This document shows, piece after piece, positions 7,925 through 43,192 of a stretch of DNA of 64,000 nt; the first letter of the stretch is position 1, and each line of letters starts with the position of its first letter. A program made the translations under genes and the position numbers. The notes under the pieces were generated by a model. That model was not told where the DNA came from. It saw only the letters and a list, made by a program, of their open reading frames with translations, and searched no databases. The stretch comes from a virus: IMG/VR virus record IMGVR_UViG_3300025112_000005, positions 16,206 through 80,205 of that record, one strand, 5' to 3'.

Positions 7925-10900
7925 ATGTTGACGATGGCGAGCGTGGCGCGGTTGGCGAAGGCGAAGGGCAAGGACTACCGCGAGCGCGAAGCGGCGGGCC
8001 AAACGACCCTCTTCGGCGGCGGCGCCAGTGACGCGGACAGCGGTCACAGGCCCCGACGGCGTCGTCCCCGGGGGCCGGGCGCTGAGGCGGAACGCAATCA
8101 CGCACTTCGCTCGCAGCATCACCGGAAGAGGGCGGAGGATCACCAGCATCGACGCACGCCGGGGGCGCCGGGGGCGCAGGAGCACGCACAGGCGATCATG
8201 GCGCACAACAACGCGGCGGACGCACACAACGCGGCGCGGACGGCGCACGCGGAGGGCCGACCCGGGGCAGAAGCAGCCGCGGAGCGAGCGAACGACCGGA
8301 CACGAGACGCGGAAGCCGCATCTATCAGGGCGAGGAGCAAGGAAACCCCTCGCCACACGGGGCGCCACGGTGAGGAGGGGGGCCGAGGTAGTGGCCGGAT
8401 CCGCGACGCGCTGGACCCCGGCGGGCGAGCGCCTGCCCCGCGTGATCCGGTGTCTGACCACCAGATCGGACGCAGGGCCGCGCACCACGCAGACGCAGCA
8501 GCCGCACACCGCGCCGTGGCAGCAGGACGCCCGTCCGACGCGAAGCAACACCGCGCCGCGGCAGACGCGCACGAGAACGCGTCTGTGCTACATGCGGCAG
8601 GGCACGCCGACGCAGGCCGGGCGAGCGTTGAAGCGCTGGCGGCCAGCGATGCCGTTGCGGGTGGACGCGGTGCCACGAGCAGCGGCGATGATGCCCGGGA
8701 CCGGCGCGAGGGGGAGGCCCGCGGGCGCGTCGCCCAGGCGAAGGCGAAGCTGGACGCGGCGAAGAAGAAGGCCGGCGACAAGCCCCCGAGCGGCTACTAC
8801 CCCGCGAAGCGCTCCAAGAAGGGCGGCTTTACGGACGGCAAGGGCAACTACTGGTACCCCGGCAAGGGCGCGAAGCCCGCGGGGGCTCACGACGGCGAGC
8901 ACGGCAAGGACGCGGCGCTGGCGCACCACGACGAGCGCCGGGCGCACCACGACGAGATGGCGCTGGAGCACAAGAAGGCGGCGGCTGATCCCTACCGGAC
9001 GATGGAGAGCCGGGGGAAGCACGCGGACGCAGAGCGCAAGCACCACCACGCAGCGGTACACCACGGCGCGGCGCACGCAGACATCCGCGCGGGGCGCGTG
9101 GAGCCGAGCGACCCCAAGAGACACGACACCCTGGCGGGGACCACATCCGAGTGGGCCGACGACCACGACCGGGCGCAGTGGAACGACGAAGATGCGCACC
9201 ACCACGACGAAGCGGCGCGGCACCGGGCGAAGGCGGCCGAGCTGGGCGGCCACGGGCCGGAGACCCGGGCGCATCTGAACGCGGCGGACGCGCACGAAGA
9301 GGCGCACCGGCACGGGCGGGGCAGCATCGACACCCGAGCCCGCGACGTGTTCAGCGAGCGGGCCAACAAGGCGGGGGAGAAGGCCACGGCCGCGAGCAAG
9401 GCGGCGCGCAAGAAGGCCACGAGCAAGCCCCATACGCGTCACTCGTTCAATGAGGCGTTGAAGGGGCGAGACCGCAAGGGGCGCGCGGAGCTGTGGCACG
9501 AAGTGCTGGAGGGCGCGGGACTGACGGGGAGCGACCAGCCCAACTGGAACAGCCTCGGCAGCATCGAGACGCTACGTGCGACCCTCGCCCGGCGCGAGGG
9601 CTGGGAGGAGGGCCGCAAGAAGATGGCGGCGCTGGACGCGGAGCTGAAGAAGCGCGGGATGTTGCCCCTCACCGACGACGAGATGATGGACCGCGAAGCA
9701 GCGCGCATGGACGCGGAGGGCGTGCCCCACCCGCGTGACGCCCTGGACGCGCACACGGCGTACAAGAAGACCAAGGGTGCACTGGGTACGGATCTGGTCG
9801 AGTACCTGGAGATGAACGCATACAAGGTGCCCCCCGGGGCGCACGACCTGACGTCGTTGACGGACAAGGAACTGCGCAAGCTCAAGGGGCAGGTGTGGAA
9901 CGCGCTGAACGCCCCTGGACACGGCCATGCGTCGGTTCGCACACGGCGGCAGGCGCGGAAGGCGGCGAGCGCCCTGAGCGCGGAGGCGGATCGGCGTCTC
10001 AACGAGGGACACAAGGACAAGGCGGATCGGCGCAAGACCGGCGGCTTCGGCTCCCAGGCCGAGGTAGACGCGGCGTTTGAGGGCGGCGACCCGATGGGGC
10101 TGGACCCCAACGCGGCGGCCAGTGCGTCCATGAAGCAGAAGCCCGGCGCGGTGAAGCAGGCTGCGGCGGCGAGCGTCAGCGCGCGGACGGAGAAGGACAC
10201 GCCGAAGCCGGGGAGCCACGCTGCATTGGTCGCGGCGGGGAAGGCGGCTCTGGAGCGTGCGGACCACCCGCAACACAAGGTGCCGAAGGCCCTGCTGAAC
10301 CGGGGCGGGCGCCTGGGACGTGAGCGGGGCATCAAGGAGGCGGCGGAGAGCTGGTACAAGCACCCGGGCCACAGCGGGATGCCGGCGCGGCACGAGGTGA
10401 TCAAGCAGGTGCAGAAGGACCGGCAGCGGTGGCACGAGGACGGCGGTGGCAAGGGGTCGAGTAAGGTCGCGGACTTGGCGCCGAGCTACCTGCACGAGTA
10501 CGCGAAGCACGCGGCGTCTCAGTACGGGGACACGCCGCAGGCGGCCCCCGACCCCCAGGAACACGGGCTGTCGGGTGGGGAGGCGGCGGATCTGGTCAGC
10601 CGCTTCACGAAGCTCATGGGCACGCCCGAGGAGCCCACGAGCTGGTCCGGCGACCACGGAGGTGCGCAGATGCCCGCTGAGCACGGGCACGGCGAGGACT
10701 TCCACAGGCGGCTGATGACCGAGGCGCGCACAAACGCGGCGTCGTCCCGTTCGGGTATCCACAACAGCGCCCACCTGCACCGCATCGTCCAGCAGGCGGA
10801 CCAGCACGTGGCCGACTTCGCGGAGAGCAAGAGCAGTCACCGTAGCGGCGGTGCTGTGGCGACGTACCACCCCGACGAAGAGCAGCACTGGGGCACGGCG

Positions 10901-11020
10901 ATGGCTGCGCTCCAGAACGCGCACGGCGATACGCACCGCTTCGAGGCGAAGCGCCGCAAGACGGACAACCAGATGGTGATTCGGGCTCACCGGAAGTCGG
11001 GGAAGAGCCCAAAAGCGTAG
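7925..11020 (+). CDS. Giant His/Ala-rich mosaic head-cargo protein 1
   Basis: GGAGGA RBS; N-terminal RLAKA; YREREAAGQTTLFG and PPSGYYPAKRSKKGGFTDGKGNYWYPG modules shared with other head-region giants; AH..AA.AH repeats. Confidence 0.8.
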   Translation: MLTMASVARLAKAKGKDYREREAAGQTTLFGGGASDADSGHRPRRRRPRGPGAEAERNHALRSQHHRKRAEDHQHRRTPGAPGAQEHAQAIMAHNNAADAHNAARTAHAEGRPGAEAAAERANDRTRDAEAASIRARSKETPRHTGRHGEEGGRGSGRIRDALDPGGRAPAPRDPVSDHQIGRRAAHHADAAAAHRAVAAGRPSDAKQHRAAADAHENASVLHAAGHADAGRASVEALAASDAVAGGRGATSSGDDARDRREGEARGRVAQAKAKLDAAKKKAGDKPPSGYYPAKRSKKGGFTDGKGNYWYPGKGAKPAGAHDGEHGKDAALAHHDERRAHHDEMALEHKKAAADPYRTMESRGKHADAERKHHHAAVHHGAAHADIRAGRVEPSDPKRHDTLAGTTSEWADDHDRAQWNDEDAHHHDEAARHRAKAAELGGHGPETRAHLNAADAHEEAHRHGRGSIDTRARDVFSERANKAGEKATAASKAARKKATSKPHTRHSFNEALKGRDRKGRAELWHEVLEGAGLTGSDQPNWNSLGSIETLRATLARREGWEEGRKKMAALDAELKKRGMLPLTDDEMMDREAARMDAEGVPHPRDALDAHTAYKKTKGALGTDLVEYLEMNAYKVPPGAHDLTSLTDKELRKLKGQVWNALNAPGHGHASVRTRRQARKAASALSAEADRRLNEGHKDKADRRKTGGFGSQAEVDAAFEGGDPMGLDPNAAASASMKQKPGAVKQAAAASVSARTEKDTPKPGSHAALVAAGKAALERADHPQHKVPKALLNRGGRLGRERGIKEAAESWYKHPGHSGMPARHEVIKQVQKDRQRWHEDGGGKGSSKVADLAPSYLHEYAKHAASQYGDTPQAAPDPQEHGLSGGEAADLVSRFTKLMGTPEEPTSWSGDHGGAQMPAEHGHGEDFHRRLMTEARTNAASSRSGIHNSAHLHRIVQQADQHVADFAESKSSHRSGGAVATYHPDEEQHWGTAMAALQNAHGDTHRFEAKRRKTDNQMVIRAHRKSGKSPKA

Positions 11021-11052
11021 CCCCGGCGAGCACCGGGGACCACGTCGAGACC

Positions 11053-12150: not shown

Positions 12151-12193
12151 TTCCCGCCACCCTCGTGGGGCTGCGTGCTCGTGCGCCCCGGCG

Positions 12194-12222
12194 CCCGTGG
12201 TTCGATTCCACGGGCTGGCTCC
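12194..12222 (+). other. tRNA T-arm-like hairpin / 3' tRNA fragment
   Basis: CCCGTGGTTCGATTCCACGGG: canonical T-loop in a 7-bp stem; no matching 5' acceptor strand found. Confidence 0.4.
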
Positions 12223-12411
12223 TCCGCTTAGTTCGGAGCTGCCCCCGTCCCGGGGTACCGGAGGCGGGGAACGCGGGCACGCAGCGTCAACACCTTGACC
12301 ATGTAGCGGCAACCGGGCAGGATCAGGCCCTGCCGGCTTTATCCGCTCGCGCGAGCCCGCGTCAATCAACGGACGCTGGTAGGGTGGGCGGCTCAACCAC
12401 CGGAGGCTTAT

Positions 12412-12690
12412 ATGCCCGTCCGACACCTGAAGATCCGCAACTCCAAGCTCTACGGCACCCGCGTGTTCAACGTGGATGCCGAAGGTCGTGTGACCGCGGA
12501 GGACGGGAGCAACCCGACCCCCGTGGAGGCGGCGCGGTTCGCCACGATGGCCAATTACCACGTGACCCCCGACGACGCGGATGCGGCGGTAGAGCCGCAC
12601 GCGACCAAGGCGCCCGAGCCCGAGCCCCCGAAGGCGAAGGCGAAAGACGCCCAGGCGCGTCCCCCGCGGCGGCGCAAGCGCAGCAAGTGA
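12412..12690 (+). CDS. Hypothetical protein upstream of TerL
   Basis: GGAGG RBS; GTGA overlap with TerL. Confidence 0.75.
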   Translation: MPVRHLKIRNSKLYGTRVFNVDAEGRVTAEDGSNPTPVEAARFATMANYHVTPDDADAAVEPHATKAPEPEPPKAKAKDAQARPPRRRKRSK

Positions 12691-14408
12691 GCATCGCGGC
12701 TCAGCTCCTCGCGACCCCCGAGGGGCGCCGAGGGCTGGCCGCGGGGTCCCCCGCTTTCTTCGACACGCTTTATTGCGGGATGCGGCAGGCGGCGCACCGA
12801 CGGCGCTGGCTGGACGTGGTCGAAGAGACGATGGTCACCGCGCGGCGGACCCGTCGGAAGGGGCGGCTGCTGCTGTTGGCCCCGCGTGACCACGGCAAGA
12901 CCGAGCTGGCGATCAGCCTTGCGCTGCGGCAGGTGTGTTTGAACCGCGACGTGCGGATCTTGTGGATCAGCGAAGCGGCGGGCGTGGCAGAGAAGCGCGT
13001 GCGGCGCCTACGGTCGTTGCTTACGTCGGACAAGGTCGCGGAGGATTGGTGCAGCGCCCCGGAGGCGGGGCTGGGACCTTTCCGAGCGAACGACGAGAAA
13101 TGGACAAACACCCAGCTCTACGTCACCCGCAAGCTGGCCAGCGTGGACCCCACGATCGAGGCGGTCGGCAGCGGCGGCGCAATCACGGGCGGTCACTTTG
13201 ATCTGATTCTGTGCGACGACCTGGAAGACGACCGGACGACGTACACGGAGGGCCAGCGCGAGAAGACGCGCACGTGGTGGGCGGGCACCGTGCTTCCAAT
13301 GCTCAACCGCGGCGGAACGCTGGCGGTGATCGGGACGCGCAAGCACGCCGACGACCTATATGCCCGGCTGCGGAAGTCGCCATTGTGGCGCGTGATCGAG
13401 GACCCCGCGATCCTGAAGTGGCCCGACGCGCACGAGGTTGAGACGGAGCCCGACCCGAAGACCGGGCAGGAGCTTGTCACCCGGATCCGCGTCGAGGGCG
13501 ATTCTGAAGTGCTGTGGCCCGAGGAGCGCCCCATCGAGTACCTGCTGGGCGAGCGCTACGGCATGGGCTCGCTGTTCTTCGCCCGCGAGTTTCAGCACCA
13601 AGTGCAGGACGACAGCGCGGCGGCGTTCAAGTGGGAGTGGTTGGAGCTGGCGAAGAAGCGCGGGCGCGGGCTGCACCTGGGCCAGCTCCCGCCCGTGGAG
13701 GACCTTCTGCTGGTGCAGGGCTGGGACCTTGCGCTGGTGACCGACGAGGATCGAGCGCGCGCCCAGGACAGCGACTACGTGGTGGGCATCGGCTGGGGCA
13801 AGGACCCGAAGACGGGTGACCGCTACCTCGTGAGCGGGCTACGCAAGCGCGGCATGTCCCCCGGGCGCATCCGGGGCGAGGTCATGGGCGAATTCGAGGC
13901 GCTGGGCGGGCTGCGCAAGGTGCGTGCGGTTGGCGTCGAGCGGAACGCGTTCGGGGAGCTGCACTACATGGGGCTCAAGCGGACGACGGACCTACCGATC
14001 AAGCCCCACATGACGACGGGGCCGAAGAAGGCCGACCCGTGGGAGGGCGTGCCCGCGCTGGCCACGCTCTTCGAGAACGGAAAGGTGGTGCTGCCCTACC
14101 ACCCCGACGACCCCGAGGGGCGGGCGTTCGTGGACGTGCTGTGCGCGGAGCTGTGGGGGCTGGGGCGCGAGGCGCACGACGACACCGTCATGGCGCTGTG
14201 GATCGCGGAGTGCGTGCTGCGCGGCGCCGGCTTCCAATACCGCGTGGCGACGGGCGACGCGATCCACGAGATGGCGGGGACCGTGTACGACGAGCCCCCG
14301 ATCAAGGCAGACGACAGGCGGTCCCAAGAGCTGTGGGACGGCATCGCGGGGATGTTCCCCGGAGCGGATTTCGGAGACGATGATGACGACGACGAAGCTG
14401 ATCCGTAA
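12687..14408 (+). CDS. terL: Terminase large subunit
   Basis: Walker A LAPRDHGKT, Walker B ILCDD, coupling motif VIGTR, nuclease QGWDLA...ERNAF...HDDTVMA. Confidence 0.95.
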   Translation: MSIAAQLLATPEGRRGLAAGSPAFFDTLYCGMRQAAHRRRWLDVVEETMVTARRTRRKGRLLLLAPRDHGKTELAISLALRQVCLNRDVRILWISEAAGVAEKRVRRLRSLLTSDKVAEDWCSAPEAGLGPFRANDEKWTNTQLYVTRKLASVDPTIEAVGSGGAITGGHFDLILCDDLEDDRTTYTEGQREKTRTWWAGTVLPMLNRGGTLAVIGTRKHADDLYARLRKSPLWRVIEDPAILKWPDAHEVETEPDPKTGQELVTRIRVEGDSEVLWPEERPIEYLLGERYGMGSLFFAREFQHQVQDDSAAAFKWEWLELAKKRGRGLHLGQLPPVEDLLLVQGWDLALVTDEDRARAQDSDYVVGIGWGKDPKTGDRYLVSGLRKRGMSPGRIRGEVMGEFEALGGLRKVRAVGVERNAFGELHYMGLKRTTDLPIKPHMTTGPKKADPWEGVPALATLFENGKVVLPYHPDDPEGRAFVDVLCAELWGLGREAHDDTVMALWIAECVLRGAGFQYRVATGDAIHEMAGTVYDEPPIKADDRRSQELWDGIAGMFPGADFGDDDDDDEADP

Positions 14409-14622: not shown

Positions 14623-14631
14623 CCGTGTAGG

Positions 14632-17600
14632 ATGGGCGGCGGAATGCTGACCTATGCCGAGCTGATCAAGGCGCACGCGGCGACCTACCATGGCAAGGGG
14701 CGCCGTACGGGTGTGCCGGGGCACTACAGCTACGACTACGACGAGCCCGCGCGGCGGGGCAGTGGGCGCGGCCAGCGCAAGCGGGAGGCGCTGGAGGCGG
14801 CGGGCCAGCTCTCGTTGCTGGGTCCAATGCAGCCAAGCGCGGCGCCCCCCGCCGCCCGTGAGGAGCCGAAGCCCGAGCGCCCCCAGCTCGCGCACGACCA
14901 CCCCGCGGTGAGTGAGCCCAGCGCGCGCATCACCCGGTACGACCTGAAGCAAGCGGCTGGCGTGCGCGCCGAGCTGGCGAAGATCGCGGACGAGCTGGAG
15001 AAGCTGCCCAACGGCGCAGACTGGCGACATGGCCGAGCGCGCGAGCTGGTTCGCGAAGTGGGCCGCGCCAGCACAAACGTCTTGCGGTGGGCGATGAAGC
15101 TGGAGCTGTGGGACAAACCCGACCACGAGGGCGGGCTGGACGCATTGATGAGCGGGCTCAACCGCAGCAGCGTGCTGGAGGGCGGCCCCCAGGCGACCGC
15201 GCGGCGCCTTCGGCGCATTCACAGAAAGCTGGCCGCGTCGGCGAAGCGTGGGACTGAGGACGTGTCCCACGAGGAGCGGCTGGAGACGCAGCAGGTGGGC
15301 GCCGTCCAGCTACAGGTCAGCAGGCACGAGGCAACGCCGGAGATGGCCCGTTCGCTCGCTCACGATCTGCGCGAAGCGCAGGGGCGCATGAAGCGCGCGG
15401 GGTTCCACGAGGCGTACAAAGGCGGGCGGGTCACCCTCAAGAAGCACGCGCGGGAGCACGAGGCGCGATACATGCGAAACGGCCGGTCAGCGGACACGGT
15501 CGAGTGGAACACCAATTCGCTGGGTACGCTGGGGGAGCACGAGGAGACAGTGGCGTCCATCGTCCACGAATTCGGACACCGGCACTACTACCGCAACCTG
15601 CCCAGCCGCGCCGTTGAAGGGTGGGACGCCGAGTCTGCGCGCATGGTCAACGTGGCGCGCGAGGACGTGGACAAGCTGGCCGACTACACGGCGCGCTTCG
15701 CCAGCGACGCGCAGCGCGACGGGGCCACTTACAGCGAGAGGCTGGGGACGGAAAGCGCGTTCTCCGAACGGGTGCGTGCCCACATCACCAATGACCCTGA
15801 CCTGGACCCGGAGACCCGCGCGCTTTACACGGCGATGGTGGGGGTCGTGGGGGAAGACCTGGAAAGCAGGCTGACGACCACCTGGGCGCACCCCGGCGAC
15901 CGCCAGCACGGGCTTGACGATGTGCGGAAAGAGATGCGCGAGAAGCTGGTGGGTGCGCATGTGCCCGTTCACTGGACAACGCAGTACGGGAGCACCAAGC
16001 CAGAGGAGGCATACGCGGAGGCGTTCAAGCTCTACGTGATGCGAGGCCCCCGAGCCCTGGGTGAGCGCACCCGAAAGTTCTTCGAGCACATTAGCAGCCT
16101 GCGCAAGGCGCAAGGCGCGTTCTCAGCACCGCTGGACACCGTGATGGAGCACCGGAAACAGCTCCGCGCGGGGCGGTTGGTAGACGCGATGGATAAGGCG
16201 CTGGGGGTTTTCCGATGCAGGCGTGGCACGCCGAGGGGCTGGCGCTGCTTTGCGGATCTGGTGAAGGCATACACTGCGTATCGCGGGAAGGGCACGCGCC
16301 ACGGCTCCCCGGGGAGCTACACCTACACCTACGACGATGAGCCCAAGGCGAAGGCGAAGAAGAAGGGGCGCCACACGGTGCTCCCCACGTGGGACGCCCC
16401 CGAGCGCATCGACCTGACTCTGGTGGGGTGCAGCAAGTCGAAGGTGGACCACGACGACCCCGTGGCCGTGCGGGACCTGTACCGCAAAGACCTGTGGAAC
16501 AAGCGGCGGGGGTTCGCGGAGGCGCGCTCGCGCCACGGCACCCCCTGGGCGGTGGTCAGCGCCGGCTTGGGCATTGTGGACCCCGACACCCAGGCGACGC
16601 GCTACGACACCCAGGTAAAGGATTTGAAGGGCGACGCGCGGAGCGAGTGGGTGCGCAACACGCGCGAGAGCCTGCGGCAGAAGCTACCCCGCGGCGGGCG
16701 CCTGGAAGTGATCGCCGGGCGTGACTACGTGGCGATGCTGCGGGAGGCGGTCGAGGGGCTGGGCATCGAGCTGGTTAACCCGCTCAAGAGCGTGGGCACA
16801 GGCGACGGGAAGCACTGGCTGGCGGCGCAGACGGATCTGCTGAACAACAAGCCCGCGCCCCGGGAGCCTGAGCAGCTGCGCCCCGCGCAGCAGCAGCTCT
16901 CCCTGTTCGGCCCCGACGACTGGCCCAAGAAGCGCGCGGCGCCCACGCTCTCCGCGTACGCCGAACTGCGCCCCCTGCGAAAGAAGCACGCGGCGGCAGA
17001 GGGTGCGTGGAAGAGGGTGCTGGGGGCAGCGGAGCGGCTGCTGGTGGCGACGGACTACGCGGAGCCCCACACGGTCGAGACGACCCGAGGGACCTACAAG
17101 TACAAGGGGGGCACCCATCGACCCCCCCAGGCGAGCGGGGGGCGGCTGGCGCCCGAGGTGACCCACCAGTTTGCAGGCGTGCTCCCGCAGGGGCGGCTTA
17201 CGCCGGAGAAGCTACATGCGGGGAGGCTGGCGGCGGCGGAGACGATGGCGCGGACGATGAGCCTGGACGAGACCCCCGCGGGTGTTCCGCGCTGGTGGAA
17301 GGCCGAGCGGAAGAGGTTCGTGGACGCTGTGGCGGAGCTGCGCGGTGCGCGTGACACGTACACGTCGATCACGCGACTGTTCCCGGGGAAGCGCTTCGAG
17401 ACCCCGAAGGTAGGCCGCGCCCTGGAGAAGATGGCCCTGGAACGCCGAGGGCTGGAGCGCGAGGCGGACGAACTAGACATCCCCCTGCGGCGGTACTTCG
17501 CCAGCGGGTCCAACAACGCGGGGGAGATTCGCGGGTTTGCTGCGCTGGGCATGAACGTGGGCGTGGCGGTGGACCAGATCAACAGCGCGTCCCTGGAAGC

Positions 17601-19441: not shown

Positions 19442-19444
19442 CGG

Positions 19445-19846
19445 GTGGCCACCCTACGCGGCGAAGTAACCGGATCCGCGAACGCCAACAACGCGGCGCG
19501 GCTGGCCACGATCTGGGGGGACGGGGTTCTTGTCTACGACACGGACGATGACCGGCTCTACGTCGGCGACGGGGAGACCGCAGGCGGTAATCCGCTCGCT
19601 GAGGGCGGGACTACGCCCATCCCCGGGCACCCGCATTTGTTTCAAGGAGATGGGGCCACGACCGTTTTCACGCTACCGTGGACCCCGTTGACGGCTTCGG
19701 CCCGTGTGTGCCGAAACGGCTTGCAGATCGAGCGAAGCCCGACGCCTGGGGATAAGGACGAATTCCTGATCGCCGGTAACAAAATCACTTTCGGGGCTCC
19801 CCCCGGTACGCTGGACCGTCTTTCGGTCTCGGCGTGGACCCGCTAG
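19445..19846 (+). CDS. Fibre-associated protein (Mtd/hyaluronidase N-terminal-like motif plus small beta domain)
   Basis: GVLVYDTDDDRLYVGDGETAGG; GDGATTVFTL...RNGL. Confidence 0.7.
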   Translation: MATLRGEVTGSANANNAARLATIWGDGVLVYDTDDDRLYVGDGETAGGNPLAEGGTTPIPGHPHLFQGDGATTVFTLPWTPLTASARVCRNGLQIERSPTPGDKDEFLIAGNKITFGAPPGTLDRLSVSAWTR

Positions 19847-19866
19847 AGCGAGAGGGAAAGCAGCAC

Positions 19867-21942: not shown

Positions 21943-22002
21943 TCCGGGTCACCATCACCACGACCGGGGCTCGCCCCCCGGCACCAGCCTGGGGTCGAGT
22001 AA

Positions 22003-34350: not shown

Positions 34351-34351
34351 C

Positions 34352-34555
34352 ATGGACACAGATCTGACCCCCCAAGAGGCTACGGAGCTGCTTCGGATGC
34401 TCTGCCCCGTCGGCGGGATGAACCCCGCGGAGCCGGAGCCCGTGGAGCGCGCGCGGTTGTGCCGGCGCCTCTACGACCACATCAAGGCGGACAACGGGCT
34501 GGTGCCCAACTGGCTCAAGCACGACGTGTCCAACATCGTCGGCCCCGCTGCGTGA
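34352..34555 (+). CDS. Small hypothetical protein
   Basis: GGAGG RBS; GTGA overlap with the next gene. Confidence 0.6.
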   Translation: MDTDLTPQEATELLRMLCPVGGMNPAEPEPVERARLCRRLYDHIKADNGLVPNWLKHDVSNIVGPAA

Positions 34556-37500
34556 GCAGCGGACCCTTCATCGGCCCCCGGGGCGGGAAGTGGGCAGACG
34601 CCCAGCACACCGTCCCGTGGCATAGCTCCGAGGGGCGCGACCGGAGGCAGACCAGCCTGCTGGGCGCGGACGACGAGGGCACCAAGCGAAAGAAGCCCCT
34701 GCAACGACTGCGTGAGGGGGAGGTGATGGCGTTCCTCCAATCGCACGGGCACCGAGCGGGGAGCCATGCGGAACCGGGCGGTCACGGAGAGAGCGGGGTC
34801 CACACGCGCCAGCACTCCCGGCAGCAGGTCGAGGTGCGGCACGTCGAGTCACACCACCGGGACCACACGGGGCGCATCCAGCTCCCGGGGGGGGAGCACG
34901 AGGCTCTGAAGAAGCACGAGGCCCGCCAGCACGCCAAGGTGGTGGAGAAGCTGAAGGCTGCGGGGTATCACGTGCGCACGGACGCCGTGGGGCGGACGCT
35001 GGTCGGTCGGCGAGGGGGAGCGCCCGAGCACGGCCCCCAGCGTGTGCAGGCGGCGAGGCCGAAGAAGAAGCTGGAGCTGGTGGTGGACAACACGCAGCCG
35101 GGGCTGTTCAAGTCGATGGTGGTCCGAGCGCTGTGCAAGGCGCAGGGAGGCCCTTTCATCGGCCCCCGCGGCGGCAAGTGGGCGAACGCCCAGCACACGG
35201 TCCCGTGGAAGCCCAGCGGCGGGGTGTTGCGGGTGGACGCGGCCCTTGTCCGTGAGACTGTGGACGGGTGGTTTTCTGACTTGCGAGCGATGCCGGGACA
35301 ATCCCGGTCGTCCATGATCGAGTACACCCAGGCGGACGGGGCAAAGCGTCGCGCGGTGGCACAGATCGTTGTAGAGGCGAGCACGGGCGATCCGCGAGGC
35401 GTGAAGGGCATCCACCATTACCGGACCACGGGGCAGGGGGGGATGCACAAGGTCGTTGTGCACATCAGTATGCGAAAGCTGGCGGGGAAGATTGATACAG
35501 CCAAGGAGGCGGTGCGTTCCGTTCTTGCGCACGAGCTGACACACGCGGCCGACGTAGGGCTCCAGAAACGCGCAGAGCGACGCGCACGTGCTCATTTCTC
35601 AGGGGACAGTAAGGGCGCCGAGCGTCTGAGGGCGAGGGACCATAGCGACGGGTCGGCCAACTACTTCAACCAACCGCATGAAGTCACAGCGAAGATGCAG
35701 CAGATTCAGCGGGAGTTGTTGGACCCGGGTGTGGGGGGCGCGCTGGTCGAGGATGCAAAAAACCACGCGGACGACCCAGACAACCCGCCGCCGATGACGC
35801 CCGCGCAACTGCTTGAGTGGGAGAGCCCCTCCTGGGGTGAGGTGAAAGAGCACTATACCCCCGAGAACAAGAAGCGTGTGCTGCGTATGGTGGCGAAAAC
35901 CCATGCAGCGCTTTTGTCGGGAGAACTGGAGCCTGTGAAGAAGGCGGGGCCGTTCTCCTACATGGTGCTGGACGCGCTGGCGAAGGCCGCGAAGGGCGAG
36001 AGGCGGCAGGGCGCGAAGTACATTCGGCGCGTGCCCAAGCCCGGGGGCGGCTACCGCTACTACTACGCGGAAAGCAGCGCGGCGCGGTCGGCGACCGAGG
36101 GCGAGGACGTGCGGCTGGGCGACAAGCTGACCCGGGTCCACAAGGTCCATGCGCACGGTATTGAGATCGAAGACGAGAAGGGCAAGCGCACAGTCTCGCA
36201 CGACGAGTGGTCCCACATGCTGCACGAGCATTACGGCTCGCGCTTCTACGAGTGGGCAGAGAAGCGCGCGCGGCAGTACGCGGGCGCGGTGCTCAAGCAC
36301 GTTCCCGCGGAGCTGTTCAACGAGCTGAAGGGCGAGACCGACGCCGAGCGCATGGCGGACCTGAAAACCCGGCTGCCCGACGTGCACGCGAAGCTGGAGA
36401 AGGCGTTTTCGCGCGCGGGCGTCAGTCCCGAGGATGCGCACCGCGCTATCTCGCACGTGCTGGAGCGCAAGGGGTGGACGGGCGGCGCCCGGCAAACGCT
36501 CCTGGGGTCGATGCTCAACCGCGAGACGGCGTGGACCGTTCGGCACTACCGGAGGCTGAGCAAGGCCGCGGAGAACTTGGCGAAGGCCGACGGCGCGGAG
36601 CTGGTCGACCAGAAGCATGTTGCGGCGGCCATCGCGTTGCCGCGCACGGCGACGGCGATGGACCGCGTGGTCAACCGCGCGACGGCGGAGATGCACCACA
36701 TTCGCGCGGTGCTGAAGCTCCAGCTAACCCCGGGGGAGAAGAAGGAGGAGCAGGGCGCGCTGGCGCTGGACACGAAGATGTCCGCTGAGGCGCTGGCAAA
36801 AGTGCGCGCGGCGCACATGATCGGCCAGCTCTCTGTGATGGCTCAAGCGTTCCCGGGGCTGGCGTCGGATCCGGCCATGCAGCAGCTTCGTGTGCTGCTG
36901 GGCAGCCTTCAGTCCGTGGCTCCGCGCACGGAGCCGACGGCGAAGGGCGCGCAGACCACGGTGTACGTCGCGGGCGAATTCGGTTCCCCCGAGCCCATGA
37001 CCGCGGAGTACGCGCTGGTCGACGCGGCCGAACTGACTGCGAGCCACGACCCCGTGACGTTCGCGCAGAACGAGGCGCACGACATCGGCAACGAGCGCGC
37101 GTATCACCGCGACAAGGCCGAGCGGGCGAAGGTGATCAAGAACGCCGAAGACCTGAAGCCGGATCTGGTGATCAACACCAACCCGGACGCGACCAACGGC
37201 GCCCCCATCGTGGACGAAAACGGGGTGGTGTTGGGGGGCAACTCGCGCACCATGTCCATGCAGCGCGTTTACCGGATGGGAGGCGCCCAGGCGGCGGACC
37301 TGAAGGGGTACCTGAAGGGACAGGCGCGACAGTTCGGGTTCAAGCCCGGCGACGTGGAGGCGATGGCCCAGCCGATCCTCGTGCGGAAGGTCCAGCCCCA
37401 CGACGACGACCACAAGCGGCTTCTGGTGCGCCAGCTCAACGAGACGTTCATGCAGGCGATGGATCCGCGCACGATGGCGGTCGCGCAGGCGGCGCGGCTG

Positions 37501-38961
37501 GACGACAAGGCGCTGGAGGCGCTGGCCACCGACATGGGGCCGGACAAGACGCTGGCGGCGTTCCTGGGGGCGAAGGCATCTGACGGGTTCGTGAACCAGC
37601 TCAAGCGCGCGGGCGTGATCAGCGCCCAGAACCAGAACGCGTACATTCGCAAAAACGGGCGGCTCAACGAGAACGGCCGGCAGCTCGTGGAGAACGTGCT
37701 GGTGGGGAAGGTCGTCGGCGACGCGGACCTGCTGGTGGACCTGCCCCAGCCGCTTGTTGGGGCGCTCGCGCGTGCCGTGCCGTACATGGTGCAGGCGGAA
37801 GGGGCAGGGGCGGCGTACAACATCCGTAGTGAGCTGAAGCACGCGCTGGAGGCGTACACCGACATCAAGAACCGGCCTGAGTTCGGCATCCCGAAGAGCA
37901 AGAAGGAAGCAGCGGCGGTGCTGGAGTCGTGGAAGCGACTCGGCGGAGGGCTCTTTGAGGGTCACGAGGTGTTCAAGAACCCGCGCAGCATGGCGATCCT
38001 GAACACCCTGTTCACGCAAGCCGGCCCGCGGCAGATGGCCGCCGTGTTCCGCAAGTACGCGGAGGCGGCGGGGCATCAAGAGGCGGGTGGCGGCGAGGGG
38101 CTGGGCTTCTACGAGAAGAAGACCCCCGACGACGTGTTCGGAGAAGCGTTCGGCCGGGCGGAGGACGAAGAGGCGGCGCAGGAGAAGGCCAAGGCCGCGC
38201 GTGAGAAGCACGTGGAGGAGACCAAAGCAGAGGCCAAGAAGAAGGCCAAGGCGAAGGCGGAGCGCGAGGCCCAGAAGGAAGGGCCGCGAAAACTGTCTGA
38301 CCTGCCCCACGTGAGAGACGACCCGTGGGACGATGGGACGACGGTTGTTTTTCGACAAAGCCCGTTCCCCAAAGGGGACAAGCCCGCTATTTCAAGCAAG
38401 CTGATCAGCTCCGCGAAGGTCGAAAGCGTGAAGCTGGCGGACCTTCAGGGCTCACAGACCGAGATCACAGAGGTCGGGGTAGAGAAGCACGCGAAGGCCC
38501 CCGACGCGACCACACCGACAAGCGAGCTACCCGTGGTTATTCGTACAGCGGACGGGAAGCACATTATTCAGGACGGGCACCACCGGCTTGCGGCGGCTGT
38601 TTTGCGGGGAGATAAAGACGCCCGTGTGCGCGTGGCGGTCGAGCCCGGTGCCAAAGAAGCGCCCGCGCCGAAGGTTGAGCCCGAGGCGCCCGCGGTCGAT
38701 CACGCGGCCAAGGCCGAGGAGCACGACATCGCGGCGGAGAACATGCCCGGCAAGTACCCCGGGCACGCGTGGACGAGCACGAAGGAAGCGGCCCAGGACG
38801 CGCACACCGCGGCGGAGAAGGCGCACCAGAAGGCGCACGCGAGCCCGACCGCGGAGAACAAAGCAGCAGCAGCGGCGGCGACCAAGAAGGCCGAGGAAGC
38901 GGACGCGGCTTCGGAGAAGGAAGAGGCGGACGCGGCAGCGTCGCAGGGCGGGTTGTTCTGA
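34552..38961 (+). CDS. Giant polyvalent protein 6: zincin (HELTH) + ddrB-like ParB + C-terminal ParB
   Basis: LAHELTH...YFNQPHE; YALVDA..LTASHD...GAPIV...GGNSR; IIQDGHHRLAA. Confidence 0.87.
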   Translation: MSSGPFIGPRGGKWADAQHTVPWHSSEGRDRRQTSLLGADDEGTKRKKPLQRLREGEVMAFLQSHGHRAGSHAEPGGHGESGVHTRQHSRQQVEVRHVESHHRDHTGRIQLPGGEHEALKKHEARQHAKVVEKLKAAGYHVRTDAVGRTLVGRRGGAPEHGPQRVQAARPKKKLELVVDNTQPGLFKSMVVRALCKAQGGPFIGPRGGKWANAQHTVPWKPSGGVLRVDAALVRETVDGWFSDLRAMPGQSRSSMIEYTQADGAKRRAVAQIVVEASTGDPRGVKGIHHYRTTGQGGMHKVVVHISMRKLAGKIDTAKEAVRSVLAHELTHAADVGLQKRAERRARAHFSGDSKGAERLRARDHSDGSANYFNQPHEVTAKMQQIQRELLDPGVGGALVEDAKNHADDPDNPPPMTPAQLLEWESPSWGEVKEHYTPENKKRVLRMVAKTHAALLSGELEPVKKAGPFSYMVLDALAKAAKGERRQGAKYIRRVPKPGGGYRYYYAESSAARSATEGEDVRLGDKLTRVHKVHAHGIEIEDEKGKRTVSHDEWSHMLHEHYGSRFYEWAEKRARQYAGAVLKHVPAELFNELKGETDAERMADLKTRLPDVHAKLEKAFSRAGVSPEDAHRAISHVLERKGWTGGARQTLLGSMLNRETAWTVRHYRRLSKAAENLAKADGAELVDQKHVAAAIALPRTATAMDRVVNRATAEMHHIRAVLKLQLTPGEKKEEQGALALDTKMSAEALAKVRAAHMIGQLSVMAQAFPGLASDPAMQQLRVLLGSLQSVAPRTEPTAKGAQTTVYVAGEFGSPEPMTAEYALVDAAELTASHDPVTFAQNEAHDIGNERAYHRDKAERAKVIKNAEDLKPDLVINTNPDATNGAPIVDENGVVLGGNSRTMSMQRVYRMGGAQAADLKGYLKGQARQFGFKPGDVEAMAQPILVRKVQPHDDDHKRLLVRQLNETFMQAMDPRTMAVAQAARLDDKALEALATDMGPDKTLAAFLGAKASDGFVNQLKRAGVISAQNQNAYIRKNGRLNENGRQLVENVLVGKVVGDADLLVDLPQPLVGALARAVPYMVQAEGAGAAYNIRSELKHALEAYTDIKNRPEFGIPKSKKEAAAVLESWKRLGGGLFEGHEVFKNPRSMAILNTLFTQAGPRQMAAVFRKYAEAAGHQEAGGGEGLGFYEKKTPDDVFGEAFGRAEDEEAAQEKAKAAREKHVEETKAEAKKKAKAKAEREAQKEGPRKLSDLPHVRDDPWDDGTTVVFRQSPFPKGDKPAISSKLISSAKVESVKLADLQGSQTEITEVGVEKHAKAPDATTPTSELPVVIRTADGKHIIQDGHHRLAAAVLRGDKDARVRVAVEPGAKEAPAPKVEPEAPAVDHAAKAEEHDIAAENMPGKYPGHAWTSTKEAAQDAHTAAEKAHQKAHASPTAENKAAAAAATKKAEEADAASEKEEADAAASQGGLF

Positions 38962-39296
38962 TGCGGGTGGGACTGAGTGAGAGCTACCCCGGGGAGTTGG
39001 AGGAGCTGGGACCGCTGGGGGTCATGCAGAAGGCCGAGGCGGGGCTCCATGCAGCGCTGCGCGACCTGGGGCACCCCGAAGCCGCTGCTGCGCTGGCGGG
39101 GCGTCTGGATGCACTTCTCGACGCTGAGCGGGCGCTGACCGACGTGTACGAGGCGGGGGAGCTGCGAAAGGCGCTCCCACCGCGCGGGGGCGAGCTGGAC
39201 GTGGTGCAGATGCTCGCCGACCGGATGGGGGGCGCGTACGACGCGATGGCCGCGCGCTTGGAGAAGCGGCTACGGGAAGCGGTCGACCGTGGCTGA
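38961..39296 (+). CDS. Small head-region protein
   Basis: TGATG overlap; contains MQKA and LRKA motifs. Confidence 0.7.
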   Translation: MRVGLSESYPGELEELGPLGVMQKAEAGLHAALRDLGHPEAAAALAGRLDALLDAERALTDVYEAGELRKALPPRGGELDVVQMLADRMGGAYDAMAARLEKRLREAVDRG

Positions 39297-40329
39297 TGAC
39301 ACGTTGTCCCGCGTCGTGGCGGACCTGATCCGCGAGCATCACGAGGCGTTTCTGGTGGCGCTGCTGGGGCGGGACGCAAGCACCGTCCCCCCCGAGCGCA
39401 TCGAGGAGCTGCTGGCGTCCGGCGCGCTCGACCCGCACGCCATCGGCCGCGTGCACGTGGCTGTGGGGGACGAGCACTTGAACCCCTACGAGTACATGCG
39501 GCTGGTCTCGCGGGCGTACGCCAAGCTGGGCGACGACGACGCGGTGGCGGCGCGGACGTGGGGTTTCTCCGATTGGGAGCCACACGTGATCCGCGAGCTG
39601 GAGAGCGCGCGGGCGGAAGACGTTCGCCCCGCCGAGGCGCGCGCGCACGTGACCGCGGCGCGTCCCGAGCCCCCCGACCTGGAAGCCGGCGCGGTTGAGC
39701 CCAAGGCGCCTGGGTGGATGACGCCCCAGGAGCGCGCCAGCCACCGTGAGGCGCTGCTCCGTGCCGGGTCGTATGCGCGTGGGCTGGGCAACGTCTACGC
39801 TGCGGACTTGAGCACGAAGGCGGAGACCTGGACGGGCGAGCAGATCGAGCAGGAAGCGAACGCACCGCAGCGCGCGCAGATGCAGCAGGTGATTCGGGAG
39901 CACGTGGCCGAGGCCATCGCGACCCACCGCGACCAGGAGAAGCTGGCCCGGGATCTGGCTGAAGCGACGGGGTTCTATTCGCACAACTGGCGGCGGATCG
40001 CGTCCACTGAGCTGCAAGGCGCCCACAACCTGGGCATGGTGGAGGCGGCGATCGACGCGCACGGCGAGGCGGGCCGCGTGGCACGCATCACCGAGTCGGG
40101 CGCGTGTGAGCACTGTCTGCGGTTGTTTCGAGACGCCGAGGGCAAGCCGCGAGTGTTCGAGGTTCGCGAACTATTGGAGAACGGGACCAACGTGGGGCGC
40201 AAGGCAGCTGCGTGGCTCCCGACGGCGTGGCCGGTGCATCCAAACTGCCGCTGTGACACGCGGATTGTACCGCCTGGGCGAACAGTCACCGCTGATGGTA
40301 GGATCCGACGCGAGGAGACCGCGGCATGA
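39289..40329 (+). CDS. MuF/SPP1 gp7-like head morphogenesis protein
   Basis: WRRIASTE, ACEHC, VHPNCRC. Confidence 0.9.
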   Translation: MADDTLSRVVADLIREHHEAFLVALLGRDASTVPPERIEELLASGALDPHAIGRVHVAVGDEHLNPYEYMRLVSRAYAKLGDDDAVAARTWGFSDWEPHVIRELESARAEDVRPAEARAHVTAARPEPPDLEAGAVEPKAPGWMTPQERASHREALLRAGSYARGLGNVYAADLSTKAETWTGEQIEQEANAPQRAQMQQVIREHVAEAIATHRDQEKLARDLAEATGFYSHNWRRIASTELQGAHNLGMVEAAIDAHGEAGRVARITESGACEHCLRLFRDAEGKPRVFEVRELLENGTNVGRKAAAWLPTAWPVHPNCRCDTRIVPPGRTVTADGRIRREETAA

Positions 40330-41009
40330 GCTACGACACCCCCGACGACCTGGGCGACTTCCGCTTCTGGTCCCCCCTGCTGGTCAAGGCCGACAACCCC
40401 AACGGCGGGTTTGGTGAGGTGGCGCTGGGGAAGATCGGCGGCGTGATCAGCTCCGACACCGTAGACTTTCAGGGCGAGACGCTGGACCAAGACGGCGTGG
40501 ATTGGTCGTACTTCGAGGCTCACGGGCTCTTGAACTACAACCACACGGCGCTGATCCTGGGCGAGCCGACCGCGGTGATTCGCAAGGGCGGCCGAACGCT
40601 GATGGAAGGCGTGCTGTACCTGCACCAGCCCAAGGCGCGCGAGGTCTACCAGACCGCCGTTGCGATGCGCAAAAGCGGTGCCCGGCGCAGCTACGGCTTC
40701 AGCGTCGAGGGCAAGGTGTTGGAGCGCGAGCAGGGGAACCCCACGAACGTCCGCCGCGCCCGGGTGATGAACGTGAGCGTGTGCGAGCACCCCGTGAATC
40801 CCGACGCGCGTATGACCTTGCGCAAGGCGCTGAGTGTGGGCTACCAGACCGCAGCAGGCATGGACGGCGGTTTCTCCCCGCTCGTGCCTCAGAGCTTGGA
40901 GGGCAGCGTGGCGCTGTCCACGTTCAAGCGGGAGCTGTTGGGTCAGTTTCCCCGCCTGACTGATGATGAATGTGACGCTGTGGCACGGCGAGTGCTTCAC
41001 TTGCCTTGA
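40326..41009 (+). CDS. Prohead protease
   Basis: DFQGE...LNYNH...GFSVEG...PVNPDA; lies between MuF and capsid. Confidence 0.9.
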   Translation: MSYDTPDDLGDFRFWSPLLVKADNPNGGFGEVALGKIGGVISSDTVDFQGETLDQDGVDWSYFEAHGLLNYNHTALILGEPTAVIRKGGRTLMEGVLYLHQPKAREVYQTAVAMRKSGARRSYGFSVEGKVLEREQGNPTNVRRARVMNVSVCEHPVNPDARMTLRKALSVGYQTAAGMDGGFSPLVPQSLEGSVALSTFKRELLGQFPRLTDDECDAVARRVLHLP

Positions 41010-41034
41010 CCGCGGATCGCGACCCGGTGAGAAT
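41006..41034 (+). promoter_or_regulatory. Putative sigma70-like promoter for scaffold/capsid
   Basis: TTGACC-17 nt-GAGAAT in the intergenic gap; same -35 hexamer as at 4403. Confidence 0.45.
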
Positions 41035-41071
41035 ACCGACGTGGGGTGACCCCCCCGAGGAGACGACGAAG

Positions 41072-41704
41072 ATGCAGACGCGAGACCAGATCATCGCGGC
41101 GCTCCGTACCGCGGGGGCCGACGAAGAGACAATCAGCAAGGCGCTGGCCGAGCTGGAGCCGACCACCCCCGAGAACGACGCGCTGGGCAAGAGCCTGGGC
41201 GACCTGCGTGCCGCGTTCGACCGCGAGCACGCCGGACGCGACGAGGATCTGGCCAAGAGCCTGGACGAAGCCGCCGATCTGGTGGACGCCGTTACGAAGG
41301 GCTCCGACCTGATCCTGGCCGAATTCCGCGCGCAGAACGACGCGCTGGCCAAAGGGATGGTGGCGCTCATCAACACGTCCCGCGACGAGCGCGCCGAACT
41401 GCGTTCGCTGATCGAAGAGGTCCGCGAGCTTCGGCAGGATCGCGAGGAGCAGGACGAGCGCATCGCCAAGGCGCTCTCCGTCCCCCAGGAGCCCCGTGGG
41501 CTCTCCGGGGCCACGCCCGTCCCCACGCCGTCCGAGCGCGTCCTTGGAGGCGCCCCGGAGGCGGGCGACCTGATCAACAAGGCGCTGACCGAGCTTCAGA
41601 GCGCCGACGAGCCCCGCAAGCGGGAGCTTTCGACGGCGATTTCGCGCCTTAACTCCGGCTTCGCTGCGCACGCGGTGGCCCAGGAGTTTGGGTTGAGCGC
41701 CTGA
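41072..41704 (+). CDS. Scaffold-like coiled-coil protein
   Basis: Between protease and capsid; helical and acidic; seven [LIV]-x-K-[ASG] motifs. Confidence 0.75.
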   Translation: MQTRDQIIAALRTAGADEETISKALAELEPTTPENDALGKSLGDLRAAFDREHAGRDEDLAKSLDEAADLVDAVTKGSDLILAEFRAQNDALAKGMVALINTSRDERAELRSLIEEVRELRQDREEQDERIAKALSVPQEPRGLSGATPVPTPSERVLGGAPEAGDLINKALTELQSADEPRKRELSTAISRLNSGFAAHAVAQEFGLSA

Positions 41705-41749
41705 CACGCGTCGGGTCGCCCCGCGCTGACTGAATAAGGAGATTCCAGA

Positions 41750-43192
41750 GTGCAGTTCCCGAATATGAACCAGGACATGCCCGTCGCGGATCTGGTCAAG
41801 CTCAACAACGCGCTGCGTAAGGCGGCGAGTGTGGGCTACCAAACCGCAGCGGGGACCACGGGCGCCGACGCAGGGACGTTCTCCCCGCTCGTGCCGCAGA
41901 GCATCGAATCAGTGCTGGCTTCGGCCACGTACACGATGCAACACCTTTCGCTGTGGCGTGACATCCCTAAGCGGGACGTGACGCAGACCCTCCACGAGTA
42001 CGCGGTGGTCAACGAACACGGCGCGGACTTGGATCCGTTCTTCGCGGAAGGTTCTGTCCCGGCGACGAACCGTTCTGAATACGAGCGGAAGAGCCTCAAG
42101 ATCAAGTACCTTGCCGAGCGGCGCGAGATCACCGACGTGGCCAGCATGGTGGGCCTGATCGGGGTCAACAAGAACGCGCTGGCCGAGGAGACCGAGAAGG
42201 GCACCATCCGGCTGCTCCAGCGCACTGAGCGCGCGTTGTTCCACGCGGACAGCGACATCAACCCGCTGGCCTTCGACGGCATCTTCAAGCAGATCGAAGA
42301 CGGCGCGTCACAGAACGTCACCGACATGGACGGCGCCGCGCCGACCCCCGACCTGCTGGGCGAGATGCTGGGCGAGCTGTACGCCGCACCCAACTACGGG
42401 ATCGCGGACTGCATCTACGTCGAGCCGCGCATCCACCAAGAGCTGATCCGGCAAGCGCAGGCGCACGGGCGTCACGACCAGCTCAGCATTCAGGACAGCA
42501 CCAAGCTGACCTGGGGCGCCAAGGAGCTGTGCATCATGTCCCCGTACGGGCCGGTGCCGATCCGCAACGCGCCGTTCCTGTACAACAAGTGGCCCGTCCC
42601 GATGAACGTGGACAAGCAGGCGATCCGTGTCGCGGGCATCGGCGACGTGATCCCCGACACCCCGCAACTGGACGCAGGTCCGGCATCCCCCCCAGACGGC
42701 GCGTCGAAGTTCACCGCGGCCGACGCGGGCGACTACGAGTATTACATCGAGGCAGTCGGGGCGAAGGGCGTAAGTGCCGTCTTCTTCGCTGGCGCCGCCG
42801 CGGTGGCCGTGGTCGCAGGCGACAAGGTGACGTTCACCATCAAGGGCGACGGACTCACCAACGCCCCCGCCTACTACCGGATCTTTCGATCGGCCAAGGA
42901 CGGGGGCTACAAGACCGCCCAGCTCCTCACCGAGCTGGCGTACACCGCGGGTATGGATACGGCGTTCGAGGACTACAACGCGGAGAAGCCCGGCACGTCC
43001 AAGATCCTCGCGGTCAAGCACGATCCGGGGATCATCGAGTGGGTGAAGCTCCTCGACTTCCTGCGGCGCCCGCTGGCCGAGGTGGAGACCACCAAGCCCT
43101 TCCTCCTGATGCTGTTCGGTGCGCCCATCATCAAGGTTCCGACCAAGACCTGGGTGCTCAAGAACTGCGGCGTCAACACGGCGGGCCTGTAA
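41750..43192 (+). CDS. Major capsid protein (SPO1/Twort-like, with an Ig-like insertion)
   Basis: LRKAASVGY, QSIE, E.ALFHADS...FDG, DAGDYEY...YYRIFRS, LMLFGAP. Confidence 0.92.
   Translation: MQFPNMNQDMPVADLVKLNNALRKAASVGYQTAAGTTGADAGTFSPLVPQSIESVLASATYTMQHLSLWRDIPKRDVTQTLHEYAVVNEHGADLDPFFAEGSVPATNRSEYERKSLKIKYLAERREITDVASMVGLIGVNKNALAEETEKGTIRLLQRTERALFHADSDINPLAFDGIFKQIEDGASQNVTDMDGAAPTPDLLGEMLGELYAAPNYGIADCIYVEPRIHQELIRQAQAHGRHDQLSIQDSTKLTWGAKELCIMSPYGPVPIRNAPFLYNKWPVPMNVDKQAIRVAGIGDVIPDTPQLDAGPASPPDGASKFTAADAGDYEYYIEAVGAKGVSAVFFAGAAAVAVVAGDKVTFTIKGDGLTNAPAYYRIFRSAKDGGYKTAQLLTELAYTAGMDTAFEDYNAEKPGTSKILAVKHDPGIIEWVKLLDFLRRPLAEVETTKPFLLMLFGAPIIKVPTKTWVLKNCGVNTAGL

Follow-up and report, generated by a model that had tools for sequence, protein, structure and literature searches.

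Giant polyvalent proteins of an uncultured tailed phage carry conserved short peptides paired with a predicted lysine-directed prohead-protease site

Phage polyvalent proteins are giant multi-domain proteins that, in the parts of PMC5512222 considered here, are predicted to be packaged, to be delivered with the DNA and possibly to be processed by their own metallopeptidase (MPTase) domains (Iyer, Burroughs, Anand, de Souza and Aravind, 2017). We analysed six giant genes of this kind, G1 to G6, in IMG/VR virus record IMGVR_UViG_3300025112_000005. The window, to which all coordinates refer, is the 64,000-nucleotide stretch formed by bases 16206-80205 of that record. The proteins encoded by G1 to G6 share short peptide modules (A to D), several of which directly follow a lysine motif, [LIVMF]xK[ASG]. 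This pairing of motif and module is the subject of the present analysis.

Phage P1 loads a 250-kDa anti-restriction protein through a short N-terminal signal of at most 30 amino acids (aa). In P1 DarB, the first 30 aa are enough to direct a reporter to the capsid, and P1 DdrB and DarA are processed (PMC9024508). P1 has a T4-like head, its major capsid protein (MCP) is cut after Glu (E120/S121, a slash marking cuts here and below), and each Dar protein carries a single signal, with no repeated internal tags. In T4, with internal proteins IPI-III and Alt, and in phiKZ/SPN3US, a prohead protease with a simple consensus processes internal proteins, the portal and itself, and propeptides are implicated in targeting (PMC10052503, PMC9026906). 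Cleavage by these proteases follows Glu, and targeting resides in the N-terminal propeptide that is removed. T4-type capsid targeting uses a leader of ~10 aa removed at L/I-x-E, and phiKZ/SPN3US use a T4 gp21-like protease with an A/S/G-x-E site. In SPO1/Twort-type heads, the MCP has a [LV]-x-K/[SA] site ~24-30 aa from its start, scaffolds are dense in xKS/xKA and the protease has a C-terminal copy of the MCP N-arm. In the passages of PMC7414437 used here, the Herelleviridae are described with genomes of 125-170 kb and Firmicutes hosts.

The six giants (824-1469 aa) total 22,086 nt, or 28% of the 80.2-kb genome. ORF and domain searches confirmed their interleaving with the genes for TerL, portal, MuF, protease, scaffold and MCP, all on the + strand (Table 1). 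They were also confirmed to carry unrelated enzymatic domains. We identified DUF6884 in G2 (aa 596-731, Pfam/PHROG), LPD1 in G3 (aa 1266-1361, PF18796, E 8.5e-21), a PAPS-reductase/PP-loop domain (PAPS_reduct) in G4 (~aa 294-659, Pfam/PHROG), an SNF2 helicase in G5 (aa 590-1276) and ddrB-ParB in G6 (aa 816-947, PF18763, E 4.6e-21). The C-terminal lobe of the G5 helicase also matches the DarB-like phrog_10089; this helicase portion alone gives the match, and no methyltransferase was found in G5. G1 has no Pfam or PHROG match, and ESM Atlas was also without result. On these unrelated effector domains, the LPD1 and ddrB-ParB signatures and the portal-terminase neighbourhood, we identify the six giants as polyvalent (multi-effector) proteins of an uncultured ~80-kb tailed phage with an SPO1/Twort-type head module.

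All-against-all blastp among the giants recovered short similarities (E 1e-5 to 1e-12), and the shared modules reported in the initial annotation are thus real. They are conserved peptides of ~20-25 aa at giant N-termini or domain boundaries. Module A has the pattern GPFIGPRGGKW..HT.PW, or GPFIGPRGGKWA[DN]AQHTVPW, with the wider consensus GPFIGPRGGKWADxxHTIPW. Module B reads (H)KYIRRVPKPGGGYRYYY or KYIRRVPKPGGGYRY[FY]Y, with Y[HR]GKG.R.G.PG.Y.Y.Y variants, and module C reads PPxGYxPAxRSxKGG[WF]TDGxGxYWY (also PPxGYxPAPRSxKGGWTDG..YWYPG). In composition, all three of these modules are basic, aromatic and rich in Gly. Module D is a REREAEGQLGLFG-type element at the N-termini of G1, G3 and G5.

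The pairing of motif and module also occurs outside this genome. We collected 120 large metagenomic proteins matched by G6 aa 1-600, which hold 183 module A copies and ~50 module B copies. Across 119 of these proteins, [LIVMF]xK[ASG] ends at most 3 residues before the GP of module A in 157 of 179 copies and lies within 14 aa of module B in 44 of 50 (7.8% expected). Combined, 88% of A and B copies are preceded by the motif, against ~8% expected. Module C copies elsewhere are usually preceded by it too, and the motif stands before three unrelated modules at variable spacing. The unit of site plus module that was first noticed in one genome therefore generalises. Ten modules of the present genome lie away from the extreme N-terminus, and six of them follow the motif within 12 aa, an excess far beyond chance given the ~4% expected from the site density of the giants (28 per 7356 aa). 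Among five sequences homologous to G6, the site before module B is the only one kept in all.

Modules also lie between Pfam domains. In the metagenomic protein P0019, for example, InPase (aa 31-152) is followed by module A (174), GNAT (229-284), module A (326), SAM lyase (397-503) and module A (540), and P0023 is similar. Module copies are concentrated at the start of proteins (84 in the first decile and 5 in the last), their median spacing is 299 aa and just 2 of the 201 proteins have their C-terminus within 60 aa of a module. This asymmetry, together with the placement between domains, points to a repeating unit of the form [site]-[module]-[domain]. The effector domains in the 120-protein set include ddrB-ParB, InPase, ART-PolyVal, LPD1, topoisomerase IB, Zeta toxin, GNAT, SAM lyase, GGDEF, methyltransferases and SNF2.

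Three lines of evidence identify [LIVMF]xK[ASG] as the likely prohead-protease site: the MCP alignment, the MCPs of relatives and the enrichment in protease and scaffold. The MCP is homologous to SPO1 gp6.1 and to the MCP of the Staphylococcus phi812 type (PDB 9vel, E 3e-23; 5lii, E 3e-12; 9row, E 5e-12), at 22-27% identity. The mature chain of the Twort-like MCP in 9row starts with SFQTGYG, directly after precursor VVK, and the MCP here has ALRK/AASVGYQ at the aligned position. The Lys specificity is read from this deposited mature chain; our literature searches found no paper that states the cleavage specificity of the Herelleviridae. The motif is conserved at the MCP N-terminus in 16 of 21 relatives with a cleanly read start, and relatives have L-[NR]-K/A at this position. 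MCP maturation is expected to remove a 24-aa leader by a cut after Lys, not after Ala or Ser. The initial annotation had set its cleavage bar after the Ala (KA/); the 9row chain moves it one residue earlier, to K/A.

The HK97-type prohead serine protease has the conserved His and Ser motifs, NYNH and GFSVEG, both of catalytic type, which line up with NYEH/GFSIEG in Staphylococcus phage Koomba-kaat and NYDH/GFSIEG in Bacillus phage SP-10; its Pfam S78 match is weak. Its core is flanked by LVK/A and LRK/A, and protease aa 165-205 are 58% identical to MCP aa 22-66. Proteases with a C-terminal copy of the MCP N-arm also occur in Koomba-kaat, SP-10 and the relatives G011 and G005. This copy may tether the protease in the procapsid until self-cleavage releases it. 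The scaffold contains seven [LIV]xK[ASG] sites against 0.6 expected, and protease plus scaffold together contain 11 [LIVMF]xK[ASG] sites against 1.0 expected (10.6-fold). For control motifs in the same two proteins (Arg and Glu versions, a K[DENQ] version and two variants in spacing) the ratio stays close to 1 or under it, and the Glu version [LIVMF]xE[ASG] shows no enrichment (2 against 2.4 expected). Raised counts were also obtained for the reversed motif (6 against 1.0) and for a variant with phi-xx-K spacing (3 against 1.1). In relatives, scaffolds hold 9 and 16 sites and proteases 4 to 8. The scaffolds of Koomba-kaat and SP-10 are rich in xKS/xKA, and their proteases end in [FV]VKS followed by the MCP N-arm copy.

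All LxKA strings quoted in the initial annotation were recovered, those of MCP, portal, protease and scaffold among them. The portal has LAK/A near its N-terminus and VKK/ALVEV after a long acidic tail, 5 aa from its C-terminus. The N-terminal site lies at aa 21-43 in all four portals checked. MuF here has no [LIVMF]xK[ASG] site in 346 aa. We regard the assignment of [LIVMF]xK[ASG] as a prohead-protease site, predicted to be cut after Lys, as well supported by comparison.

The motif signal in the giants is positional, not one of density. Their overall [LIVMF]xK[ASG] count is 28 against 23.5 expected (ratio 1.19), compared with 1.16 in the tail region and 1.39 in the early region. For the broad motif this is the outcome that the initial annotation had named as refuting, with sites no more frequent than in the rest of the proteome. 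An excess of the narrower L.K[AS] in the giants (17 against 5.9) concerns a motif that was defined on the same sequences. Global motif enrichment in the giants was rejected as evidence, with the broad motif at chance level.

Several observations bear on what the modules themselves are. Copies within the genome differ at synonymous sites, which indicates selection at the level of the peptide. Recent gene conversion, or a recombination cassette acting at the DNA level, was considered as the cause of module identity and rejected, given these synonymous differences and the persistence of the modules across 36-71% GC. In P0002, a 59%-identical homologue of G6, the module A with its LCK/A site (G6 aa 194-219) is replaced by module C (P0002 aa ~185-215) between conserved flanks, which suggests that modules are interchangeable. 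No solved structure is related to module A or module B. AlphaFold2 (AF2) predicts no secondary structure for module A alone (pLDDT ~62), as expected of a short linear motif. For module B the model shows a beta-hairpin (pLDDT ~60), after which come a small, confidently modelled beta-barrel and helices. A Foldseek search with the model of the B region returned only weak SH3/KOW/Tudor-like matches and one DdrB-like homologue from an uncultured phage. The modules appear to behave like short linear motifs and would most plausibly dock to a virion partner.

A second short pattern occurs beside the modules. The 120 polyvalent proteins contain 29 copies of QLxLF where 1.0 is expected, often just upstream of the Lys site or merged with it (QLGLFK/A), and the pattern also occurs in G2, G3 and G5. 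We take it to be identical to the bacterial sliding-clamp-binding consensus.

A profile search through 1.84 billion proteins extended module A beyond this genome to 781 representative proteins, some with as many as five copies. Mean column identity is ~60% across a 36-aa stretch, with 9 invariant and 5 nearly invariant positions. Module A had no match in 50,697 cultured-phage records (INPHARED, including Herelleviridae) or in 72,556 plasmid records. Among 185,579 prokaryote genomes we identified six matches, all in metagenome-assembled genomes (MAGs): two from Myxococcales and one each from Lentisphaeria, Sedimentisphaerales, a Bacillota bacterium and an uncultured proteobacterium. The matches in Myxococcales, Lentisphaeria and Sedimentisphaerales hint at possible hosts. 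Among the papers covered by a full-text search, the module sequences gave 0 matches. A degenerate DNA pattern for GPRGGKWAD matched 98 IMG/VR stretches; a search for related loci gave no match with the MCP as query and only 3 loci with a 67-aa module stretch.

Module-bearing phages share a head type. We found the present MCP family in 21 of 22 module-bearing viral contigs longer than ~50 kb, at 30-53% identity to the MCP here and with contig GC of 36-71%; the single exception is incomplete and has a distant portal match. Four relatives (G011, G005, G006 and G007) keep the order TerL - giants - portal - (MuF fusions or giants) - protease - scaffold - MCP. In two of the four, module A is fused to the MuF head protein, and architectures of the form MuF - A - HExxH - A also occur among relatives.

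We infer, and consider reasonably probable, that the giants are packaged, cut after Lys by the prohead protease, docked through their modules to a virion partner and then injected. The giants would enter the procapsid. There the prohead protease would remove the 24-aa capsid leader, dice the scaffold, and trim the portal and itself. It would also remove the short leaders of G1, G2 and G4 and split G2 (aa 545) and G6 (aa 196 and 478). With the module downstream of the cut and so staying on the product, each product would retain a module at its new N-terminus. The modules would then serve as docking points between the unit and a virion partner, whether for loading, retention or exit. Once ejected, the DdrB-like ParB, SNF2 helicase, PAPS-reductase-like, DUF6884 and zincin/LPD1 enzymes may act on host defences or DNA.

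The initial annotation had read the locus as a loading system in which the protease cuts the giants into separate injected effectors. Its observation is confirmed and generalised, and this interpretation is partly supported. Judged by the sites present, splitting would be limited to G2 and G6; G1 and G4 would lose only short leaders, and no convincing cut is predicted in G3 or G5.

A number of results weigh against packaging, cleavage and docking as set out above. The C modules and the degenerate G5 copy of module A have no adjacent site here. G3 and G5 as whole proteins have no convincing adjacent site, and the motif density of the giants is at chance level. Several N-terminal domains in relatives (InPase) are without a module of their own. 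A search for a patch in virion proteins as conserved as module A returned none, so that the partner is not evident. Finally, HExxH zincin motifs in G2 (HEFGH, aa 312), G3 (HEWGH, aa 1131) and G6 (HELTH, aa 327) offer alternative candidates for the processing enzyme. These motifs may mark the MPTase domains of polyvalent proteins.

The modules could instead be effector-side motifs that bind nucleic acid or a host factor in the infected cell and are unrelated to capsid loading, in proteins that might still be packaged and cut. The basic, Gly-rich and aromatic composition of A, B and C fits such a role, as do the retention of the tags on the products downstream of the cut, the SH3/KOW-like barrel into which module B leads and the excess of QLxLF beside the tags. 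Across phages that range from 36% to 71% GC, module A is moreover far better conserved than the virion proteins, none of which has a comparable patch, and this conservation suggests a universal ligand. However, module A is absent from plasmid-borne polyvalent proteins with the same effector domains, is confined to phages of one capsid and protease type, and is tightly coupled to the head-protease motif. The first two of these observations favour a virion-linked role for the modules, and we consider effector-side motifs unlikely.

The giants could also be cut by their own embedded zincin-like metallopeptidase domains, with the modules as recognition sites. The HExxH motifs of G2, G3 and G6 and the MuF - A - HExxH - A architectures of relatives are consistent with such autoproteolysis, and Iyer et al. 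predicted processing of this kind for P1 DdrB, in the part of PMC5512222 that concerns it. However, the motif before the modules is the same as the MCP maturation site and shows massive enrichment in scaffold and protease, both of them classical substrates of a prohead protease. G4, moreover, has a site plus module yet no convincing zincin domain. We judge autoproteolysis quite improbable. It is similarly improbable that the giants are ordinary intracellular late enzymes of the head operon with [LIVMF]xK[ASG] as an uncut structural part of the modules (such as a strand before a turn): LxKA is a common helical pattern, the giants lack global motif enrichment and large unprocessed packaged proteins exist (N4 vRNAP), but the motif recurs at variable spacing ahead of three unrelated modules, there are MuF fusions and ddrB-ParB/DarB-like content, and the gene order from TerL to protease is conserved in relatives.

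A more specific form of the packaging and cleavage proposal makes A, B and C portable tags for cargo loading, or for ejection, in an HK97-fold phage capsid: ~20 residues would be enough to bring any protein into the prohead, and each tag would be paired with an [LIVMF]-x-K/[ASG] release site. Arbitrary enzymes could then be strung together into polyproteins for the head protease to resolve, under a clade-wide, modular delivery grammar that spans ~800 protein clusters in phages of 36-71% GC. We put this forward tentatively, as possible and somewhat doubtful.

The locus differs from each of the described systems. Giants that combine LPD1, ddrB-ParB, SNF2 and zincin elements beside portal, terminase and MuF genes are shared with the polyvalent proteins of PMC5512222; in the parts of that paper considered here, however, processing is credited to the embedded MPTase, and peptides A, B and C and their coupling to a prohead site are not seen. 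Polyvalent proteins of plasmids differ in having no module A. With P1, the locus shares the DdrB-type ParB in G6, and the position of the DarB signal resembles that of a tag at a product N-terminus; no sequence similarity was found between the P1 Dar tags and the modules here. Unlike the substrates of T4 and phiKZ/SPN3US, the giants have Lys as the P1 residue and the module on the P' side, where it is kept, and are multi-enzyme polyproteins. The conserved peptide lies downstream of the site and is also internal, in contrast to a T4-type leader, and the enriched motif has Lys in place of the Glu of phiKZ/SPN3US.

The closest head type is that of SPO1/Twort, with homologous MCP and protease and the same site position, scaffold composition and protease N-arm copy. 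The MCP identity of 22-27% and the 80-kb, 68% GC genome set this phage apart from the Firmicutes phages of the Herelleviridae, and its genome size falls outside their range. Cargo is also addressed to HK97-fold shells by head-protein fusion, in MuF-fused polymorphic toxins, or by short peptides, in encapsulins. The likeness of the modules to these is a functional analogy, with no homology, and encapsulin peptides are C-terminal and not linked to a protease. Polyvalent proteins, the targeting sequences of P1 DarB and T4, and the processed ejection proteins of phiKZ/SPN3US (PMC10052503) are already known. The new element appears to be the coupling of a conserved tag to a Lys-specific prohead-protease site, which seems unreported.

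Table 1. Positions in the window of the genes, modules, motifs and predicted cut sites (a slash marks the cut).
Feature	Coordinates	Strand	Length or protein position	Detail
G1	7925-11020	+	1031 aa	
TerL, large terminase subunit	12165-14408	+		phrog_38, E 3.8e-68
G2	14632-18594	+	1320 aa	
Tail-fibre-like virion gene	19834-21942		702 aa	repeated fibre-like PHROG matches
G3	22003-26178	+	1391 aa	
Portal	26175-27914	+		Pfam Phage_portal, E 3e-20
G4	27914-30388	+	824 aa	
G5	30385-34350	+	1321 aa	
G6	34552-38961	+	1469 aa	
MuF-like minor head protein	39289-40329	+	346 aa	
Prohead serine protease	40326-41009	+		phrog_1028, E 7e-31
Scaffold-like protein	41006-41704	+	232 aa	
MCP	41750-43192	+		SPO1 gp6.1/phi812 type; homology to PDB MCPs
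Gene 3' of MCP	43632-44609			
Module A, G6	34561-34620		aa 4	
Module A, G6	35149-35208		aa 200	
Module A, G5	32041-32100		aa 553	degenerate copy
Site plus module A, G6	35131-35208			module C in P0002
Module B, G4	28097-28150		aa 62	
Module B, G6	36013-36066		aa 488	
Module B variant, G2	14686-14739		aa 19	
Module B variant, G2	16279-16332		aa 550	
Module C, G1	8783-8863		aa 287	
Module C, G3	22138-22212		aa 46	
Module C, G5	30478-30555		aa 32	
Module D, G1	7967-8020			
Module D, G3	22012-22062			
Module D, G5	30388-30408			
QLxLF, G3	~22042-22056		aa 14-18	
QLxLF, G5	~30391-30405		aa 3-7	
QLxLF, G2	~14806-14820		aa 59-63	
Site LAK/A, G1	7952-7963			predicted removal of 12-aa leader
Site LIK/A, G2	14662-14673			before B variant; predicted removal of 13-aa leader
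Site LVK/A, G2	16258-16269			before second B variant; predicted split at aa 545
Site LAK/A, G4	28079-28090			before module B; predicted removal of 58-aa leader
Site LCK/A, G6	35131-35142			before second module A; predicted split at aa 196
Site LAK/A, G6	within 35971-35988			before module B; predicted split at aa 478
HELTH, G6	35530-35544		aa 327	zincin motif
Portal site LAK/A	26271-26282		aa 33-36	
Portal site VKK/ALVEV	27888-27899			
Protease site LVK/A	40380-40391			
Protease NYNH	40533-40544			catalytic-type motif
Protease GFSVEG	40695-40712			catalytic-type motif
Protease site LRK/A	40818-40829			
Protease MCP N-arm copy	40830-40904		aa 169-193	
MCP N-arm matched by the protease copy	41825-41947		aa 26-66	
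MCP site ALRK/AASVGY	41813-41824			predicted site

The record is 80,205 bp long with a GC content of ~68%. Its 126-bp end is repeated at record position 8, and the genome is probably complete, given this terminal overlap. Neighbouring genes overlap by 4 nt at G3/portal, G4/G5, MuF/protease and protease/scaffold, and by 1 nt at portal/G4. These overlaps, and the position of the giants in the head operon, indicate that the giants are co-expressed with the head genes (portal, MuF, protease, scaffold and capsid), by co-transcription and in part by translational coupling. The fibre-like gene lies between TerL/G2 and G3/portal, an unusual location for such a protein. The gene 3' of the MCP contains an 18-aa stretch, DGLSQNINTTASATNSGY, at aa 278-295 that is 81% conserved in four relatives, with the remainder of those proteins ~29% identical; the tags excepted, it is the most conserved patch of the virion module.

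The analysis defines an unstudied phage clade with an SPO1-like capsid, genomes of 50-113 kb and MAG matches in Myxococcales and PVC bacteria. Even without a role in loading, the modules and their sites provide a readable prohead-protease consensus and a testable cut map for giant virion proteins. Should the tags indeed load or release cargo, foreign proteins could be packaged in phage heads by means of a short handle defined by its sequence. The tags would then also represent the rule by which phages fill their capsids with polyvalent anti-defence enzymes, which has so far only been predicted.

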